64,000 nt of DNA. Origin: Pseudovirgaria hyperparasitica. Taxonomy: Eukaryota. This document shows positions 1-10,816 of the stretch, piece by piece. Under the pieces are notes generated by a model. That model searched no databases and was not told where the DNA came from. It was given only the letters and a program-made list of their open reading frames with translations. The stretch lies in NCBI GenBank assembly GCA_010093815.1, contig ML996569.1, one strand, 5' to 3'. Every line of letters begins with the position of its first letter. The first letter of the stretch is position 1. A program made the translations under genes and the position numbers.

Positions 1-1929
1 TATAGATCTATAAAAGATAGACCTAATAGTTTTAAAGTTATATAAAATATAGTAAGATAGGTTATTACGGACCGAAGTAGACTATAAGTAGATCTTTATA
101 GACGGCTTACTCTACTACGATAGAAAGTACTATATACTAATAGATAACGCACGATTTACTATAGTTAGCCGATACTATAACGCTAACCTAGTAGAATATT
201 TTAGATATATACGCACCCTAAGCTCGATTTATTAGTACTATTTTTAGGAAGATATATCTAAGTATGTTAAAGAATAGATAGCTACTTATCTAATTTATTA
301 AAGAATAAAGGTACCTAGGTATAAGCCATATAGGAACTTATAGCCTCTACTAGTCCCCCTCTTTATATAGGAAGATATTACTATAGATTTTATAGTTAAC
401 TTACCTCTAAGCGAGATACTTAGAATAAGTTATAATTTAATTCTTATTATTATAGATAGACTTATAAAGATATCTAGGTACGTCCCTATATAGAAGACGA
501 TTATATTAAAAGAACTAGTATAAGTATTCTAGAATAAGATTATTAAGGTCTATAGTATACTAAAAAGGATCGTTATAGACTAAGGAAGTATATTCACGTC
601 TAAATTCTAGATATTATTCTACGAAATGGCCGGTATAAATAGAAATATATTAATAGTATTCTATCTATAAATAGATAGTTAGATAGAGCGATAGAACTAA
701 ACGCTCGAGGCCTACCTTCGTGCATTCTATAATTTTAAATAAGATAACTAGGCCTCTCTACTAAGTATAGTAGAATTCGCGTATAATAATAGTTATTATA
801 GTATAATAGGTATTACGCCCTTCTAGGCGAACCTAGAACGTAGTCTAAGAATAGGTTTCAAACCTTACACGGTCTAGTTCGACCAAACGATAGATATTAA
901 CATCCACGCGTAGGAACTAGTAATTAAAATCTTTAAAACCGCACGTAACTATCGCGTAATAATCTAGTAAGTAAATAAGTTATATATAAAGTACTATAAT
1001 AGATTAGTTAAAGATTAAGCGTATAAGAAGGGAGATAAAGTTCTCCTTAATATCCGTAATATATAAATATCGCGAGTAAATAAAAAGCTTAATTATAAAA
1101 TAGCTAGTCTCTTCCGAATTAAACGTTATATTAGTATAAGAGTCTACGAGCTCGACCTAGGAAATAATATAAAAGTCTATAACGTATTCCACGTCTTATT
1201 ACTTAAAAGGTTTTGATCTAATATATATAAACGTATGAACGTATAATTATACTCTATTATACCCTAAGATAGACTAGACGTATACGAAGTAGACTATATT
1301 ATTAAACATAGACTTAATAAGAATAGTATCTAAAAGTATTAAATCTATTAGAAGAACTATACCGAGGATAAGAATACCTAGAAACCTATAGTATATATCT
1401 TAAGTACCGCGATAGCTATATATAAATAGAGGTTATAGGATAACACGTTACTACCGTAAACCTAGCGCTATTAGGGCCGTCGTAAAAAGAAGAAGAATAC
1501 TATAGAAAACGAAGTATTAAATTACGAATCCTAAACGCATACTAGGAAAACTCTATAAGGTAGCCCTATAATTTAAGCGATATATAGTTACTAAACGCGA
1601 AGAAAATATAAATAACCGTTATAGATACGCGACGCGATATATTATAATAGAATAATATAGAGAAGTCTAGAATAGACTAATATAGACTATTATATATAAG
1701 AAGAATATAGAACTAAAAAACTATAAAGGTACCCTACTACGGAATTAAACTCGTAATATATAATATAAAAGGTTAGAGTACCCGAACTAATAACTACTAG
1801 GCTACTAGTTTAGGTACTCTAATATAATTTAGAAAGATAAACTAATTTATATATAATATCTATACTTAAGTAACTTAAAGGAAATTAGAACCTAAAATTT
1901 AATAGTTATAGAATAAATAAGAACGTATA

Positions 1930-3378
1930 TAATATTATTAAGTTAAGAATTAAATTACTAGAAAACTAGTAGATAGGTATCTAAATAGTCTAAAAAGGAC
2001 TAAAACGGATAGAAACCAGGTAGATAGAGCTAATATAGACTATATAGAAACCCTAGTAAATAGAGCCATAGAGCTACTCCTCTATCTTATTATTACTCTT
2101 AGAGCGTAGTAAATAAATTAACTAAGTAATAGAGTAACGGAGGTTAGAGACCTTATCCTCTAGAGTAACTATACGCTTAGTTAGAGCCTAGTAAGATAAT
2201 AACTAAGCGCTAGAGCGGAGCGACTAGACCTAAAGTTAGCTAACGTAGTCTAGAATAATCTAGAATAGAATATATACCCTCTTATAAGGTAACTTAGAAG
2301 GAGAACTAGTAGATCTCTTATAAGACCCGTTAGTAGCATAAGGTAGATAGAAAGGAATAGTATAAATCTCTTCTACGGCCTTAGTAGCTAAAACTAACTC
2401 CCTAGAATAGGTAGTCTAAGTACTAGAAATCTTATAGTAACTAAAAATTATAAGCTAAGGTTAATAATAATTAATAGTTTCTAAACTTATACTTTAATAA
2501 CCTCTAGGAAGAGCTTATAGCGCTCCCTAAACTCCCTATATATAGAAGCTAGGTAACCGCTAGAACTACTAAGAGTCTTATAGACACGAAGATTATTATA
2601 TATATCTTATATATAAATAGGAACCTAAAAATATATTAGTATAGACGACTTTAGATTACCCTAGACTAAAATAGTCTAATAGACTTACCTAAAGATAAAC
2701 TTTACTAAGGACGGTATAGCGGCGGTAGTAGATAGGGAGCTTAAAGATTAGATATATAGGCCTATCACGGTTAGTAGAGTAGTAGCTAATACTAGAGTTA
2801 GAGCGGAAGAGATATTTAGAGCTAGTAGCGTAAGCCTTAATATACTTAAAGTATATTAAACCGTAGTTCGCCGTTTTCCTATAGCGTAAACTATAACTAT
2901 ATTTAGTATCTTTAGCGACCTAGACCTTATTATTACTAGAGCTAGATTTAGAGTAAATATTAAGGTCCTAAAAGAATCTAGAGTAACTAAGTTAGTCTAT
3001 ATTAGACTAAAAAGAGGAATAGTATTTAGAGCGAGATAGCGAAGGTATAAACTCTTAATTATTATCTATAATAAGATCTTCTTTATCCTCTAAAGAAGGT
3101 AGAGTAGATAGATAGCGTAAGTAGATATAGATAGACTTTATAGCTACCTCTTCCGTAATACTAGTACTAGGATTATCTAGATTAGAGTGACTAGTAGCTA
3201 CGTTAGTAGTAATAGTAGTAGTAGCCTTAGCTACCTTCTTCTCTAACTTAGAGCGCGCCTTTATACTACTATAATAAGTAGATTTTTTAGCTAGTATAGC
3301 TAGGGTAGAGGTAATTCCTTTAGAGCGAGTCTTATAAGAGGAGAAGGTAGGCTTAGAAATAGAACTAGTATTAGATAT
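1930..3378 (-). pseudogene. Antisense, intron-containing Cys-rich accessory gene inside the gypsy element (RIP-inactivated)
   Basis: About 107 stop-free codons from 3378 to 3058 despite RIP; later stops in frame are TAA/TAG (ex-Gln). De-RIP CGLMCFKC...CRRC....KVC.Q. Intron 2625-2688 (GTAAGT..ACTAAT..TAG). 3' end approximate. Confidence 0.65.
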
Positions 3379-3865
3379 CTATATATATATATTAGCTAGA
3401 GATCTAAGAGTAGAATACTTATTTAGCCTTAAAGGCGATTAAAGAAGCTAAATTAGTAACTATAATAATATAAATAGATTATATAGGACTAGCTCTAATA
3501 AAAATAGACTACTCTAGACCCGAACGGATCTAAACTAAAGAAGATAGTATATAAATTAATAACTTACCTTAAGAGTAAGGTAGATATACTAGAGAAGAAA
3601 ATTTAGAATAAGAGAACTAAATATAAGCTTAGTTAATATAGTAGTTATATAACCCGCGGAGCTACCTCTAAGGTAGTAGCTATAAAGTAAGGGATAAGCG
3701 TATATATAAATAAAAGTAAACTAGAGCTTAAGTTTACCGATATAAAGACTATTAATAATATTATATAGATTTAATTAGATACGCGTATAAATATAACGCT
3801 TATAGAATTATAGATTTATATATAGCTAAGTACTTTAGGGCGAAGTATAAAAAGAAGAAGAATAT

Positions 3866-4105
3866 TATTAGGGCTAATACTAGGATAGACTTAACTAGAC
3901 TACTATAGTCTAGTATAGTCTATAATAGGTGGACCTAGGTTAAGCTAGCTAGAATAAGCAAGACTACTATATAAGTAGACCGTATATACTTAATTCCTAC
4001 TCTTTAGAAATTAACCTCGTTAGAAGAGTAGACTACCCTTTTAAATATATTCACGAATCCTTCTATAACCTATTAGACTACTATTCTACGTCTATAATCC
4101 TTACA
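3866..4105 (+). repeat. Gypsy 3' LTR (240 bp), copy A
   Basis: Starts TATTAGGG (de-RIP TGTTAGGG) just after the PPT and ends CCTTACA. Similarity with copy B stops exactly here. Confidence 0.75.
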
Positions 4106-4109
4106 TTTA

Positions 4110-4690
4110 TATAAGGAGGCGGGCTCTACGTACTAACTAACTATACTAAAAGGACCGAATCTTAAAGCTACTACTTTAAGGGTAGAGTATACTACTTATA
4201 TATAACTACTATATATATATATAATTAACTAGTAGGCACGTGCCTAATAATATCTCCCCTTTTTAAAGGCGCGTGCCCTTATATATTATAGGTATCTACC
4301 TTATAAAAGATAAACTAAACTAGCTATAATAGGCCTAGTATAAACGAATTATATATACACCTAATTAATACTTATAATACCGCCTCTAGTACTAGACACG
4401 CTAACTTACCGTAGTAATATTACTACTATATTATCTATTATATATATAAAGTACACGTAACGTGGTAAGCTAAATAGAATCGTATAAAATTTAATAACGG
4501 TTAACTAGACCGAGAGTTAAACCCGTGACCCCGTAGTAGCTTTAAGATTATATAAGGAGGCGGGCTCTACGTACTAACTAACTATACTAAAAGGACTAAA
4601 TCTTAAAGCTACTACTTTAAGGGTGGAGCATACTACTTATATACGACTACTATATACATGTATAATTAACTGGTAGGCACGTGCCTAACA
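4110..4690 (-). mobile_element. TRIM (non-autonomous miniature LTR retrotransposon), 581 bp
   Basis: Two 140-bp direct repeats, 4110-4249 and 4551-4690 (TATAAGG..CCTAACA = TG..CA). Minus-strand PPT AAAAAGGGGAGATAT at ~4250-4264. Non-coding 301-bp interior. Confidence 0.85.
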
Positions 4691-6892
4691 AGTTATAGAA
4701 TAAACAAGAACGCACATAATATTATTAAGTTAAGAATTAAATTACTAGAAAACTAGTAGATAGGTATCTAAACGGTCTAAAAAGAACTAAAATAGATAGA
4801 AACTAGGTAGATAGAGCTAATATATACTATATAGAAACCCTAGTAAATAGAGCTATAGAGCTACTTCTCTATCTTATTATTACTCTTAGAGCGTAGTAAA
4901 TAAACTAACTAAGTAATAGAGTAATAGAGGTTAGAGACCTTATTCTCTAGAGTAACCACGCGCTCGGTTAGAGTCTAGTAAGATAATAACTAAGCGCTAG
5001 AGTAGAGTAACTAGACCTAAAGTTAGCTAATACGGTCTAGAATAATCTAGAATAGAATATATATTCTCTTATAAGGTAACTTAGAAGGAGAACTAGTAGA
5101 TCTCTTATAAGACCCGTTAGTAGTATAAGACGGGTAGAAAGGAATAGTATAAATCTCTTCTACGGCCTTAGTAGCTAAAACTAACTCCCTAGAATAGATA
5201 GTCTAAGCGCTAGAAATCTCGCGGCGACTAAAAATTATAAGCTAAGGTTAATAATAATTAACGGTTTCTAAACTTATACTTTAATAATCTCTAGAAAGAG
5301 CTTATAGCGCTCTCTAAACTCCCTATATATAGAAGCTAGATAACTACTAGAACTACTAAGAGTCTCACGGACGCGAAGATTATTATATATATCTTATATA
5401 TAAATAGGAACCTAAAAACGTATTAGTATAGACGACTTTAGATTACCCTAGACTAAAATAGCCTAATAGACTTACCTAAAGATAAACTTTACTAAGGATA
5501 GTATAGCGGCGGTAGTAGATAGGGAGCTTAAAGATTAGGTATATAGGTCTATCGCGGTTAGTAGAGTAGTAGCTAATACTAGAGTTAGAGCGGAAGAGAT
5601 ATTTAGAGCTAGTAGCGTAAGCCTTAATATATTTAAAGTATATTAAACCGTAGTTTGCCGTTTTCCTATAGTATAAACCGTAACTACGTTTAGTATCTTC
5701 GGCGACCTAGACCTTATTATTATTAGGGCTAGGTTTAGAGTAAATATTAAGGTTCTAAAAGGACCTAGAGTAACTAAGTTAGTCTATATTAGACTAAAAA
5801 GAGAAATAGTATTTAGAGTAAGGCGGCGAAGGTATAAACTCTTAATTATCGTCTATAATAAGATCTTCTTTATCCTCTAAAGAAGGTAGAGTAGATAGAT
5901 AGTACGAGTAGGTATAGGTAGGCTTTATAGCTACCTCTTCCGCAATACTAGTACTAGAATTATCTAGATTAGAGCGACTAGTAGCTATATTAGTAGTAAT
6001 AGTAGTAATAGTCTTAGCTATCTTCTTCTCTAACTTAGAGCGCGCCTTTATACTACTATAATAAGTGGATTTTTTAGCCGGTATAGCTGGGGTAGAGATA
6101 ATCTCTTTAGAGTAAGTCTTATAAGAGGAGGAGGTAGGCTTAGAAATAGGACTAGTATTAGATATCTATATATATACGTTAGCTAGAGATCTAAGAGTAG
6201 AATACTCGTTTAGCCTTAAAGATAATTAAAAAAGCTAAATTAGTAACTATAATAACGCGAATAGATTATATAGAACTAGCTCTAATAAAAATAGACTACT
6301 CTAGACCCGAATAGATCTAAACTAAAGGAGATAGTATATAAATTAACGACTTACCTTAAGAGTAAGGTAGATATACTAGAGAAGAAAATTTAGAATAAGA
6401 GAACTAAATATAAGCTTAGTTAATATAGTAGTTATATAACCCGCGGAGCTACCTCTAAGGTAGTAGCTATAAAGTAAGGGATAAGCGTATATATAAATAA
6501 AAGTAAACTAGAGCTTAAGTTTACCGATATAAAGACTATTAATAATATTATATAGATTTAATTAGATACGCGTATAAATATAACGCTTATAGAATTATAG
6601 ATTTATATATAGCTAAGTACTTTAGGGCGAAGTATAAAAAGAAGAAGAATATTATTAGGGCTAATACTAGGATAGACTTAACTAGACTACTATAGTCTAG
6701 TATAGTCTATAATAGGTGGACCTAGGTTAAGCTAGCTAGAATAAGCGAGACTACTATATAAGTAGACCGTATATACTTAATTCCTACTCTTTAGAAATTA
6801 ACCTCGTTAGAAGAGTAGACTACTCTTTTAAATATATTCCTAAATCCTTCTATAACCTATTAGACTACTATCCTACGTCTATAATTCTTATA
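4691..6892 (+). mobile_element. Gypsy element copy B, 3' 2.2 kb (antisense gene, PPT, 3' LTR 6653-6892)
   Basis: Direct repeat of 1904-4105 at a constant 2787-bp offset, differing almost only by C/T and G/A transitions. Confidence 0.9.
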
Positions 6893-9800
6893 AAGAAATA
6901 CGGCTTTTCTTCTAAAGGTTATAAGTATTAAGACTATTATAAACTTAAAGCCTCTAAAGAAGATAATAAGTTAGATAAGAAGTCTTCTAAGTCTTCCTCT
7001 AAAAAGAACTTCTTAAGTAAGTAATAAAAGGCTAATAAGGCTAAAGTTATTAAAATTTTAGATTCTAAATCTAACTCTAATAATAACGTTATTAGTTTCT
7101 TTATAACTATAGCTAATATAAATAGTAAGTAATCTTAAGTAGTAAGTTAGCCTCTTATTTTAGTAATATTTTTAGACCTAGATATTAAAGCTATTAGACT
7201 TCTTACGAATTCTAATATAACTATAGATATATATAACTAGATCTTTAATTTAGGTGTATTATAATATATATTAGATTATATAAATAACTTTACCTTACTA
7301 GAACCGCGTACCTCTAGTAATATATTAATTATAAATTATTAGAAGATTTCTATTAATAGTATTAGAATAGTTTTTCTAAATTATATTCTCTTAGATAATT
7401 CTATAAAAAAGATTAAACTTACTAATATCCTCTTTAGTAAGTAACTAAATTCTATACGCCTTTTCTTCTAGTTATATATTAGAAATTAAGGGTATAGTTT
7501 AAGAGTAAAAAGAAATAATCTCTTCTTATACGACTACTATAGATCTAAAGTAATATAGATAAAATTCTATAAGGGCCTTATAAAGATTTACCTACGCTAT
7601 ATATCTTCTCCGCTTCCATTATATACTATAGTATACTTTATATTATATAAAGAATTCTATTATACTATAGGTTATTATTACGTTATAAATTCTAAAAGAC
7701 TTTATAAAGATTTTAATATAATCTCTAAGCGGCTAAGTAACTTCTACTATAAGAGTTATAGTATATCTAAATCTATATATAAGAAGTCTTTAAGCTTAAA
7801 TAGATAATATAAGATACGGTTTAATAGAGTTTATAGTAATCTCTCTAGTAAAATACTACGTAAGTCTCTAAATAGATTATAGTACTATATCTCCTTTATT
7901 AAAGAATTAACTTATTTTATATAGATCTATTTTATAAAGTATAAGTCCGAAGCTCCCGAAGTTATTATATAATTCTTTATATATATTAAGAAGTAGTTTA
8001 ATATAGGTATTAAAGAATTTATATCTAACTAAGGCGGTAAATATATTACTAAAAGTCTTTAAGACTTCTTTTATAAAACGGGTACTATATATATTACCTC
8101 TCCTATCTACTCTTATAAGTCGAATAGTATAGCTAAAAGATTTAACTATATAGTTTAAATATTAGTAAGATCTATTCTCTCTTCTAATACTAAGTTAAAA
8201 TTCTAGACTAAAGTAATTTATATAATAACGTTTATTAAGAATATTATACTATATACCTCTCTTCTAATAGTTAATATACTATATTATACTCTCTTTAGTA
8301 AGAAGCCTTCTATCTAAAACTTATATCTATTTAGAGTTACCTACTATATATATATCCCGAAAGAAGTACGAAAGCTAGATAGTAAGCTTCTCTATAGATT
8401 AGAGAAAGGTATTCTAGTTAGCTATAGTAAATTAGATAAAATCTATAAGTACTATATTCCTAACTATAAGGTTATTATTAAGTTATAAGATATTACTTTC
8501 GTACTCTTTAATCCGAGACTACTTCTATAGTAATCTCTTTCCTTAATTATTATAGAAAGAGATAGCTCTAAAGAAGAGTCGGATAATAGAGGAGTATCTT
8601 ATAATATACTAGTCGTAATCTAAAATATATAGAACCTCTAGCCCTATATAGAAGATATAATAAGTCTTACTAAGATACTCTAATAGAGATTATCTACCCT
8701 TTCTTATAGTAGGACGTCTCCTACTATATCTAGAGTAAATTAACTAAAATTCGAATCTTCCTCTAGCTATAACCTACTATATAAAAGTCTATATCTATTA
8801 AGATTATCTTCTAATATATCTTATTTTAGAAGGAAACGTAAGTATATAATTTATTTTAATAACTCTATAAATTTAGTAGATGCGGAAGAGAAGAAAATAA
8901 TCTATACTCTATTAGTTAATACTACCTTAAATATAGATATTCCTTTAAATCTAAAAGAGGCTAGGAATTCTTCTAATTAGTATTAGTAGTAAATAGCTAT
9001 TAAAAAGGAGCTAAGAAGTTATAAGATTAATTAATTATAGTAGAAAGCTCTACTTACTACGAATATCCCTATAATAGTTAGCTCTAGATAGGTATTTAAT
9101 ATTAAGACTACTATAGATAATACTAAAGTTTATAAGGTATATCTTATTATATAGGGCTTTACGTAGAAATATAGTCTTAATTATAATAAAACTTTTATAC
9201 CTATTATTAAATATAATTCTCTTTATATTATACTCTAATAGGCTATATAATTTAATAAGTATATTTACTAGATCGATTTTAATACTATCTATCTAAATAG
9301 TAGTCTATCTAAAAATATCTATATATGATACCCGCTAGACTTTAAAAAACTAGGTAAGATTCTTAAGCTCTAAAAGGTAATTTATAGATTAAAATAATCT
9401 AGTTAGAAATAGTTTTATACCTTATATAACCTTCTTTAATCTCTTAAATTTGAATAGTTATAGTTTAATCTATATATCTTTATTAGATATATTATTATTA
9501 CTATCTATATTAATAACCTACTACTTATAGAGAAGAAACCTTATATTTAATACTTTAAGTAATAGATTATAGAACGTATAAAATATAAAGATCTTAGAGA
9601 AGCGCGCTTAATATTAGGTATTAAGATTAATTAATCTTAAGAAGACTAAATTAAGCTTTCTTAAAAGGCTTACTCTTAATATATTCTAAAAAGGTTTAGT
9701 ATAATAGATTATAATAGTAGAAAGACTCTAGTTAATATAAATACCTTTCTAATAAGATCGGAAGAAATTATTAATTAAGAACGCTAGCTTATATATATAT

Positions 9801-10816
9801 AACTAATTAGATTACTTAATTATCTCGTTACTAGTACGCGTCTAGATCTTACCTTTATAGTTAGAATATACACTACTTTTAATACAAATCTATTAGAGTA
9901 ATATACTTAAATAGCCTTTAGTATATTATAATATATTAAGTATACTATCAACTAATACCTTATACTAAAGAAATCTAAAGGCGTAATAGAAATTAATATA
10001 TTCTTAGATACTTCTTAGGGTTTAGATTCTAATACCGCTAAGTCTATCTCTATATATATTCTTTAATTAAATAGAAGCTTAGTTACCTAGAATAGTAAGA
10101 GATAATTATATATTACTAAGTTAATATACAAAGTAGAGTATATAGCCTATTTAAAGACTATAAGTTACTTATAGTAGGCCCTACTAGATATAAAAGAGAT
10201 CTTTATAAGTTATAATATTCTAGTTCCTTATCTTCTTATAGATAATTAAGCTGCTATAGTACTTATCTAAAACTAATAAATTACGGTATAGTCTAAATAT
10301 ATAGCTATATATTATTACGTAGTCCGTAAATTATTTACTAATAGAGTTATATCTATATAGTATATTATAAGTTATAATAATATTACTAATATAGGAATAA
10401 AAGAACTACCCTTACTACTACTAGATTAAATAAAGATAATAATTAGTTTATAGTAGAGTTATTTCTCTTATAGTTATATCTCTTCTTTATTCTTCTTAGT
10501 ACTATCTCTTACTATTACTCTTTTAAGCTTTCCTTTATTTAATTATTACTAAGTATATATATATACTTAGTATAGAGAAGTATTATCGGAAGGTACTTTA
10601 AGTAAGAGATACTATTTCCTAAACGGGACTAGTGTCTAAACGGTTAAATAGCTTTGACTCTATCCCTAGAACTTAGCTATATATATAATTATAGAATATA
10701 TTTAATAACCTTAATCACGTCTACTTTCTACTTATAATAGTAGTAAGGTAATCTATATAGACTCTTAGAGATAAACTAAGGTATTGTATCTCTCTATGTA
10801 AATAGAGGACGTTACA
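6893..10816 (+). mobile_element. Ty1/copia LTR retrotransposon (PR-INT-RT-RNaseH, 3' LTR), RIP-inactivated; 5' part interrupted by gypsy copy B
   Basis: De-RIP motifs WIFDSGASQHM (~7238), RVHSDLSG (~7826), SDQGGEY (~8025), SNGVAERFN (~8120), YKARLVAQGFTQ..G.DYDETFAP (~9131), YVDDL (~9506), EAEYIA (~10130), DNIADIGTK (~10380). Integrase precedes RT, the copia order. Confidence 0.92.
10581..10816 (+). repeat. Probable copia 3' LTR
   Basis: Purine run AGAGAAG then TATTAT (de-RIP TGTT..). Ends GTTACA exactly where the adjacent gene is truncated. No partner LTR in the window. Confidence 0.55.

Follow-up and report, generated by a model that had tools for sequence, protein, structure and literature searches.

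We analysed a 64,000-nucleotide stretch of contig ML996569.1 from Pseudovirgaria hyperparasitica (NCBI GenBank assembly GCA_010093815.1), hereafter the window, whose first few kilobases hold the degraded 3' part of a Ty3/gypsy retrotransposon together with a long open reading frame (ORF) that runs against the element's pol gene. The window is fungal, and its gene-rich part (11–64 kb, GC ~0.45–0.55) encodes BRO1/ALIX, CRM1, ALG11, Aip3/Bud6 and a Zn2Cys6 factor. The first ~10.8 kb are AT-rich (GC 0.22–0.33) and saturated by repeat-induced point mutation (RIP): the TA/AT index reaches 1.5–2.2 and the (CA+TG)/(AC+GT) index falls to 0.01–0.21, compared with 0.5–0.8 and 1.2–1.5, respectively, in the gene-rich part. 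The antisense frame comprises 229 codons at 3378–2692 on the minus strand and is located within the spacer between the pol stop and the 3' long terminal repeat (LTR) of the element, the position that defines ORFs of the aORF-3R type. It is present in both copies of a 2.2 kb repeat that the window contains, copy A (1904–4103) and copy B (4691–6890), and in both it combines an unusually open frame with a coding-like periodicity.

A Ty3/gypsy element with a long spacer separating pol from the 3' LTR

The window begins inside the pol remnant, a RIP-degraded Ty3/gypsy sequence at 2–1450 on the plus strand, in which Pfam, alignment to relatives and codon score together delineate an integrase, an SH3-like domain and a chromodomain. 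Pfam detected SH3_Tf2-1 (2e-9) and scored Chromo at only E = 0.1, below its cut-off, while the integrase core (rve) of the recognisable integrase was missed, which shows how far RIP lowers the sensitivity of profile searches. A search for pol relatives, confined to the longer length class, returned 11 proteins among 3140 candidates. The remnant aligns to the C-terminal 480 residues of the related proteins P0002–P0004 (E 2e-48 to 1e-38, 28–29% identity), which carry PF00385 and stop ~20 residues past the chromodomain, placing the end of pol near 1450–1460. In a RIP-aware codon model, the pol frame scores +32.4 bits. With its integrase followed by a C-terminal chromodomain, the element can be assigned from its sequence to the chromovirus type of Ty3/gypsy.

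A spacer of ~2.4 kb (1451–3865) separates pol from the 3' LTR. A polypurine tract (PPT) read from the sequence closes this spacer (plus strand, 3848–3865), with the tract itself, AAAAAGAAGAAGAA, at 3850–3862, directly 5' of the LTR. The 238-bp 3' LTR occupies 3866–4103 on the plus strand and has TA...TA ends, which correspond to TG...CA before RIP. These boundaries were derived from the shared right end of the two copies, the purine tract and the joints of contigs assembled from sequencing reads. The likeness between copies A and B stops exactly at 4103/6890; one contig of the source sample, which reads TGTTAGGG, joins 2890 to 3868 with TG between, so that TG is seen directly at the LTR start; a further contig runs from 4103 straight into 4763; and there are loose ends behind 6892. 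On the opposite strand beside the LTR, our reading of the sequence revealed no apparent primer-binding site of the TGG type, and the 5' LTR with its primer-binding site lies beyond the window. A preliminary description of this stretch had given a distance of ~2.3 kb between the chromodomain and the PPT, which is borne out by a pol end at ~1450, a PPT at 3850–3862 and an LTR at 3866–4103.

Such a distance (~2.4 kb) is unusual for this clade. Among 78 related metagenome loci retrieved with P0002, 45 reach the end of the chromodomain and 18 have a recognisable LTR pair. In these 18 loci, the gap between the pol stop and the LTR measures at most 340 bp in 13, 519–648 bp in three and 1172 bp in one, the remaining pair being doubtful. 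The gap of 1172 bp belongs to locus L011, a related gypsy element in which a sense ORF of 233 codons (8231–8932), coiled-coil-like in character, lies between pol and the 3' LTR; this ORF has no Pfam family above the cut-off and no similarity to the spacer of the window.

The spacer is bracketed by a short duplication. A 21-nt purine-rich word, TAAAAAGAAGAAGAATAYTAT, is found at 1483–1503 on the plus strand, ~30 nt past the end of pol and thus in the place where a PPT is expected, and 20 of its 21 positions are identical at 3848–3868, where the second copy of the word holds the PPT and the first three nucleotides of the LTR. The match scores 37, whereas 200 shuffles gave 24 on average and 40 at most, which makes it only marginally significant. 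The two words enclose a block of 2.35 kb and could be the scar of its arrival. We also aligned 1450–1950 as a possible LTR copy of 3800–4110 and rejected it, as only the 21-nt word matches and an alignment collapsed to purines and pyrimidines equals the null. Tandem Repeats Finder detected no tandem-repeat arrays in the spacer.

Self-comparison of the window with 1904–4103 identified copy B, a 5'-truncated spacer followed by its LTR (4691–6890, plus strand). The gap-free alignment of the two copies spans 2200 bp with 93.6% identity, and 139 of their 141 differences are transitions. Copy B holds the antisense frame at 6165–5479 and the intron motifs described below at 5475–5412, so that the frame is present in two of the two copies of the window. 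Contigs from four sequencing runs, none of them listed as RNA, were compared with 1–7200. In one sample, 14,433 contig pieces fall on this region at a likeness of at least 80% and cover all of its 30 bins, and the region of the frame is represented among contig pieces of the source sample. The contig of another copy, with 18 differences, bridges 1864–1998, although its fit is lost left of 1864. Copy B therefore ends on the left, at the position that corresponds to 1904, by truncation and not at a unit boundary.

Every copy seen here is dead. Copies A and B retain 7 and 6 CpA and 2 and 4 TpG dinucleotides, respectively, next to 453 and 440 TpA, and they are saturated at the same sites, so that no RIP-corrected consensus can be obtained from these two copies. 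Of their 141 differences, 78 are paired CG-versus-TA changes, with a further 38 transitions in CpC/GpG context, from which we conclude that RIP in this genome erodes not only CpA but also CpG (via TpG or CpA) and some CpC.

Coding-like signal of the antisense frame

The frame, which we call exon 1, was delimited on the minus strand (3378–2692) by its open run, the phase of its TA dinucleotides, a codon model and Markov nulls. It starts with a stop-free ORF of 107 codons (3378–3058), which recurs in copy B at 6165–5845. It then goes on to 2692 for another 122 codons that contain five internal stops (TAA, TAG, TAA, TAG, TAG), common to both copies. The frame opens with ATA, which may once have been ATG, and the terminal TAG lies at 2691–2689. 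To gauge chance, 300 Markov sequences were generated for each of orders 1–3 from the same 10.8 kb. In these sequences, a run of at least 107 codons occurs with a probability of 0.007–0.013, and five or fewer stops in 229 codons with a probability of 0–0.003. The stop-free minus-strand run of ~107 codons in RIP-mutated DNA, as given in the preliminary description, was hence found again in both copies. The accompanying claim that the frame continues with only former Gln stops is unfalsifiable: TG is nearly gone, with 2–4 left per 2.2 kb copy, and all 34 stops of this frame over 1906–3420 are TAA or TAG.

The distribution of TA dinucleotides over the three codon phases is strongly skewed, with counts of 30/24/82 in copy A (p = 1.8e-10) and 33/20/79 in copy B (p = 3.3e-10), and each half of the frame is periodic by itself (p = 4.5e-8 and 3.9e-5). 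The excess falls on the 3|1 codon boundary, a skew shared with 11 host ORFs once these are put through in-silico RIP (43.5%), and with a Ty1/copia remnant located farther downstream in the window. Viewed in blocks of 90 nt, the periodicity begins at 3378 and weakens near 2700, and the flanking parts of the spacer are flat in TA phase (p = 0.37 and 0.87). No other part of the RIP-mutated DNA shows so strong a 3-nt periodicity.

To train a codon log-likelihood model, genes of the window itself were subjected to in-silico RIP, and the model was used to compare the sense frame with the other five. The minus frame scores +26.9 bits in copy A and +29.6 bits in copy B, and the in-phase plus-strand frame scores -4.5. 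Pol (+32.4 bits) and the copia remnant (+66.6 bits) served as controls, and the model picked the correct frame in both. The best windows of 120 codons reach 22.8 and 24.6 bits in the two copies, versus a maximum of 20.7 in 100 null sequences. In a strand test over the first 107 codons, the minus strand is favored by 27 bits; the two controls gave +22 and +46 bits, and all 11 training ORFs were positive. A coding sense opposite to gag-pol, as in aORF-3R genes, is supported by these first 107 codons only.

Candidate introns, cysteine content and homology searches

Immediately past the terminal TAG of the frame lies a candidate intron of 64 nt (2625–2688, minus strand), with GTAAGT at 2688, ACTAAT at 2640–2635 and TAG at 2627–2625 in both copies. 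It had been put forward as a canonical intron at 2625–2688, and at 5412–5475 in copy B; the motifs are indeed there in both copies, and splicing, supported by these motifs, is putative, with ~2.4 complete motif sets expected by chance. This expectation applies to 10.6 kb, both strands included, in which four complete sets were seen, two of them being this A/B pair, and GTAAGT alone occurs 17 times versus 14 expected in this composition. Signals and length are of the fungal type, albeit non-specific; what is noteworthy about the candidate is its position directly after the terminal stop.

Removal of the 64-nt intron leads into candidate exon 2 (2493–2624, minus strand), 44 codons with one stop, which comes five codons in and is followed by 39 open codons. 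TA phase counts in this piece are 7/5/15 (p = 0.045) in copy A and 6/5/15 (p = 0.030) in copy B, and the codon scores are +3.0 and +4.9. A second candidate intron of 77 nt (2416–2492, minus strand; GTATAA...TTAG, without a branch-site motif) may follow. Its length leaves a remainder of 2 on division by 3 and would link exon 2 in frame to an open run of 51 codons, candidate exon 3 (2263–2415, minus strand), with TA phase counts of 7/7/14 (p = 0.17) in copy A and 7/6/15 (p = 0.07) in copy B and codon scores of +2.6 and +2.1. An alternative end of this intron at 2441 (52 nt) was discarded, as the frame is not kept. The 119 codons past candidate exon 3 are flat and contain 13 stops. Both downstream pieces were picked by their open runs, and the support that they lend to further exons is therefore slight. 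The Gln-rich helical second exon of the preliminary description, as drawn there over 2624–1906, lacks TA periodicity and has a codon score of -19 bits.

The frame had also been described as Cys-rich and zinc-binding, a claim that finds no footing in its codons. The 229 codons comprise no Cys, one His and 25 Tyr, 15 of which fall in the last 76, and the Cys patterns reported earlier are Tyr codons arbitrarily read as former Cys. Under RIP, a Tyr codon may descend from Tyr, Cys (TGY) or His (CAY). We considered the Tyr excess as a sign of former Cys and rejected it, as the Tyr share of an open frame in this DNA is no different from the TA share; for that reason, C..C spacing patterns are unverifiable here. 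Spaced Cys/His ligands of a zinc-binding domain are not found in the frame.

Homology searches of several kinds returned no relative of the frame. Pfam yielded no family at E up to 1 for the six frames of 1904–4103 or for the copy B frame with stops written as X, and PF04195 (TRP28/Transposase_28) in particular had no match in the six frames of 1904–4103 at E up to 1. A HMMER profile built from both copies gave no hits at E ≤ 0.001 against 1.84 billion representative proteins compiled from public collections, and no match to PDB sequences was found at E up to 1. Searches of the ESM Atlas with the ORFs of 107 and 76 residues produced no usable match (best score 0.89, recognition 1998), and none of the 595 pattern matches from a metagenome scan with the ORF alignment was confirmed. 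With RIP-normalised tblastx, the spacer has one match of 25 residues (E = 0.039) in the rest of the window and only low-complexity matches of at most 30 bits in the 78 related metagenome loci, gag regions included; in a positive control, the best pol match gained from the same normalisation, going from 154 to 208 bits. Saturating RIP alters ~29% of residues in host genes, and blank homology searches are consequently weak evidence.

The copies are flanked by other mobile-element sequences. A RIP-degraded Ty1/copia remnant (6891–10400, plus strand) with matches to RVT_2 (1.9e-24) and SH3_retrovirus (1.6e-8) adjoins the LTR end of copy B, and its 5' part (6932–7291) scores 24.0 bits in the RIP-aware model, which makes it as coding-like as the antisense ORF. 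The segment at 4107–4691, which sits between the end of the copy A LTR and the point where truncated copy B begins, consists of two 144-bp direct repeats (4107–4250 and 4548–4691, 93% identical) around 297 bp and is in this layout reminiscent of a miniature terminal-repeat retroelement. A second sample has contigs in which 4553–4691 is found alone between GC-normal sequences that have no match to the window, like a solo repeat.

Origin of the frame and known parallels

We favor, at about an even chance, the explanation that 3378–2692 is the relic of a genuine element-borne antisense coding sequence of the aORF-3R type, like brtn of Boty or gene23 of Grande. These 687 nt would then be a coding relic destroyed by RIP, on the strand opposite to gag-pol, in the 2.4 kb spacer of a chromodomain-bearing Ty3/gypsy family, and the ORF would have been part of the element when the family multiplied. 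Either the LTR or a promoter of the gene's own, situated in the 490 nt that separate the LTR from the start of the ORF, may have driven its transcription. The product would have had ~230 residues, or ~325 if both candidate introns are real, with a low-complexity N-terminal half and a more ordinary C-terminal half. By analogy with the plant cases discussed below, it may have served as an accessory factor of the element, probably nuclear or nucleic-acid-binding.

Several observations weigh against this explanation. The strand call comes wholly from the first 107 codons, which are of a low-complexity Ser/Thr/Ala/Lys type; codons 108–229 are strand-neutral (-0.5 and +1.7 bits), with coding scores of just +3.6 and +5.5. 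The longest open run in the 11 host ORFs after in-silico RIP is 95 codons, and none of 3974 host windows of 229 codons treated in the same way has five or fewer stops, the minimum being six. The frame is thus more open than real genes after RIP, and a real ancestor would have had to be nearly devoid of Gln and Trp. Both the Markov nulls and the codon model were made for this analysis, and the model was checked on two controls only. Copies A and B differ only by RIP transitions and carry no information on selection, relatives of the element mostly lack such a spacer, and no search of any kind found a homologue of the frame.

It is possible, if somewhat unlikely, that the frame was never a gene, and that non-coding spacer made of trinucleotide-biased low-complexity DNA (ACT/AGT/TCT-like runs) decayed into a coding-like state when RIP placed TA at one phase. 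The concentration of the coding and strand signal at 3300–3060 would fit such an origin, as would a 9-nt tandem array inside the ORF of copy B (5991–6012) and a frame that exceeds in openness every one of the 3974 RIP-treated windows of real genes; the failure of all searches to find a homologue points the same way, and the 107-codon run taken by itself has a chance probability of ~0.01, not less. A compositional artefact accounts poorly, however, for codons 108–229, which are not low-complexity and yet keep the same TA phase (p = 3.9e-5). The edges of the periodic block are sharp and coincide with the first codon and the terminal stop of the ORF, and Tandem Repeats Finder reported no array within the ORF in copy A. 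Moreover, each strand has one very stop-rich frame (21% and 24.5%), and a simple (ACT)n relic would not give both.

A coding relic could also have been a passenger. In that case, part of a host gene or of another mobile element would have been captured, or have inserted by nesting, in reverse between PPT and LTR, and the resulting block of 2.35 kb would not serve the element. We judge this improbable. The block is bracketed by the duplicated 21-nt word (20/21) with the PPT and the first three nucleotides of the LTR, it looks like a lineage-specific gain given that 13 of the 18 related loci with an LTR pair have gaps of at most 340 bp, and transduction and nested insertion are both discussed as origins of additional ORFs in the relevant passages of PMC7264820. 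On the other hand, the word is only marginally significant as a duplication, and RIP-normalised tblastx connects the block neither to the rest of the window, the single match of 25 residues (E = 0.039) apart, nor to the 78 related loci. The presence of the block in both copies and in contigs over all 30 bins of 1–7200 indicates that it was kept through amplification, which argues against a passenger.

A coding relic on the plus strand, in the in-phase frame and in the sense of pol, with the open minus frame as its mirror image, is very improbable: TA is palindromic and its periodicity blind to strand, the plus frame has 12 stops in 230 codons (5.2%, near the 5.9% of real genes after in-silico RIP), codons 108–229 score +4.5 and +3.7 there versus +3.6 and +5.5 on the minus strand, and the 1172-bp gap of the related element L011 contains a sense ORF of 233 codons, but the plus frame scores -9 bits over the first 107 codons, where the strand test favors minus by 27 bits, and -4.5 over the whole stretch versus +26.9 for minus.

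The favored explanation, an antisense gene borne by the element, has a close parallel in fungi. The gene brtn of the Boty element in Botrytis cinerea and Sclerotinia sclerotiorum is an antisense gene between pol and the 3' LTR (Zhao et al. 2011, Virology 417:248, as cited in PMC7264820, PMC8365987, PMC4227169 and PMC5987419). As far as these citing articles describe it, Boty too is a fungal chromodomain-bearing gypsy element whose extra gene is drawn opposite to gag-pol, in the interval from pol to the 3' LTR. The earlier suggestion that the gene is possibly undescribed for its family must be tempered accordingly, as a fungal gypsy antisense gene at the same position is already in print. Unlike brtn, the frame is known here only from copies killed by RIP, and no sequence relation between the two is apparent, the profile search against 1.84 billion proteins having no matches; that search was blunted by RIP, and BRTN itself was not part of a direct comparison. 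Our literature search, which was not exhaustive, found no fungal antisense gene between pol and LTR other than brtn.

Plant elements provide the second parallel. Antisense ORFs between pol and the 3' LTR, to which the preliminary description had rightly pointed, are described for Grande (gene23, maize), RIRE2 and Retand (which has the TRP28 domain, PF04195) in the sections of PMC7264820 and PMC11963269 that deal with them. According to the same sections, these ORFs are present in most copies, have a promoter of their own in Grande and are suspected of a nuclear or DNA-binding regulatory role. They share with our element a long region between pol and the 3' LTR (2.9–6.6 kb in Retand) that holds an antisense ORF. 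They differ in that they belong to plant non-chromovirus lineages; the match to PF04195 is lacking here, and the spacer of our element is free of tandem-repeat arrays.

Retroviral antisense genes resemble the frame in their location near the 3' LTR, and perhaps in having a promoter of their own and in being spliced, but they belong to animal retroviruses without sequence relation to the frame, in which splicing is putative. An example is the antisense transcript that the human T-lymphotropic virus (HTLV) makes from its 3' LTR, and the HTLV product is spliced. The antisense promoter is mentioned in PMC7264820. An antisense intron would come through retrotransposition, since splicing does not remove it from the sense genomic RNA.

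A more far-reaching version of the element-borne gene can also be drawn. It posits a three-exon antisense gene (3378–2689, 2624–2493 and 2415–2263) for a protein of ~325 residues without detectable relatives, which would contain a Cys/His-rich module and act as the element's own regulator. The strategy of brtn and gene23 would have been invented independently in a different fungal lineage, and the introns would have been kept because they are antisense to the genomic RNA. We regard this version as doubtful and would give it little weight. Taken as a whole, the preliminary description was largely right in what it observed and identified the right kind of gene, an antisense accessory ORF, and overreached as to its Cys-rich and zinc-binding nature, its function as a regulator or anti-silencing factor and its novelty.

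All copies seen are dead and the protein has no known relatives, and the biological pay-off of the frame will thus be modest until an unmutated relative is found. In practical terms, TA phase combined with a codon model from host genes subjected to in-silico RIP can locate former coding frames where homology searches go blind. If the frame is real, it would be a second, apparently unrelated antisense accessory gene in a fungal LTR retrotransposon, and it would support the view, so far mainly plant-based, that the interval between pol and the LTR is a recurrent site for the gain of extra genes.

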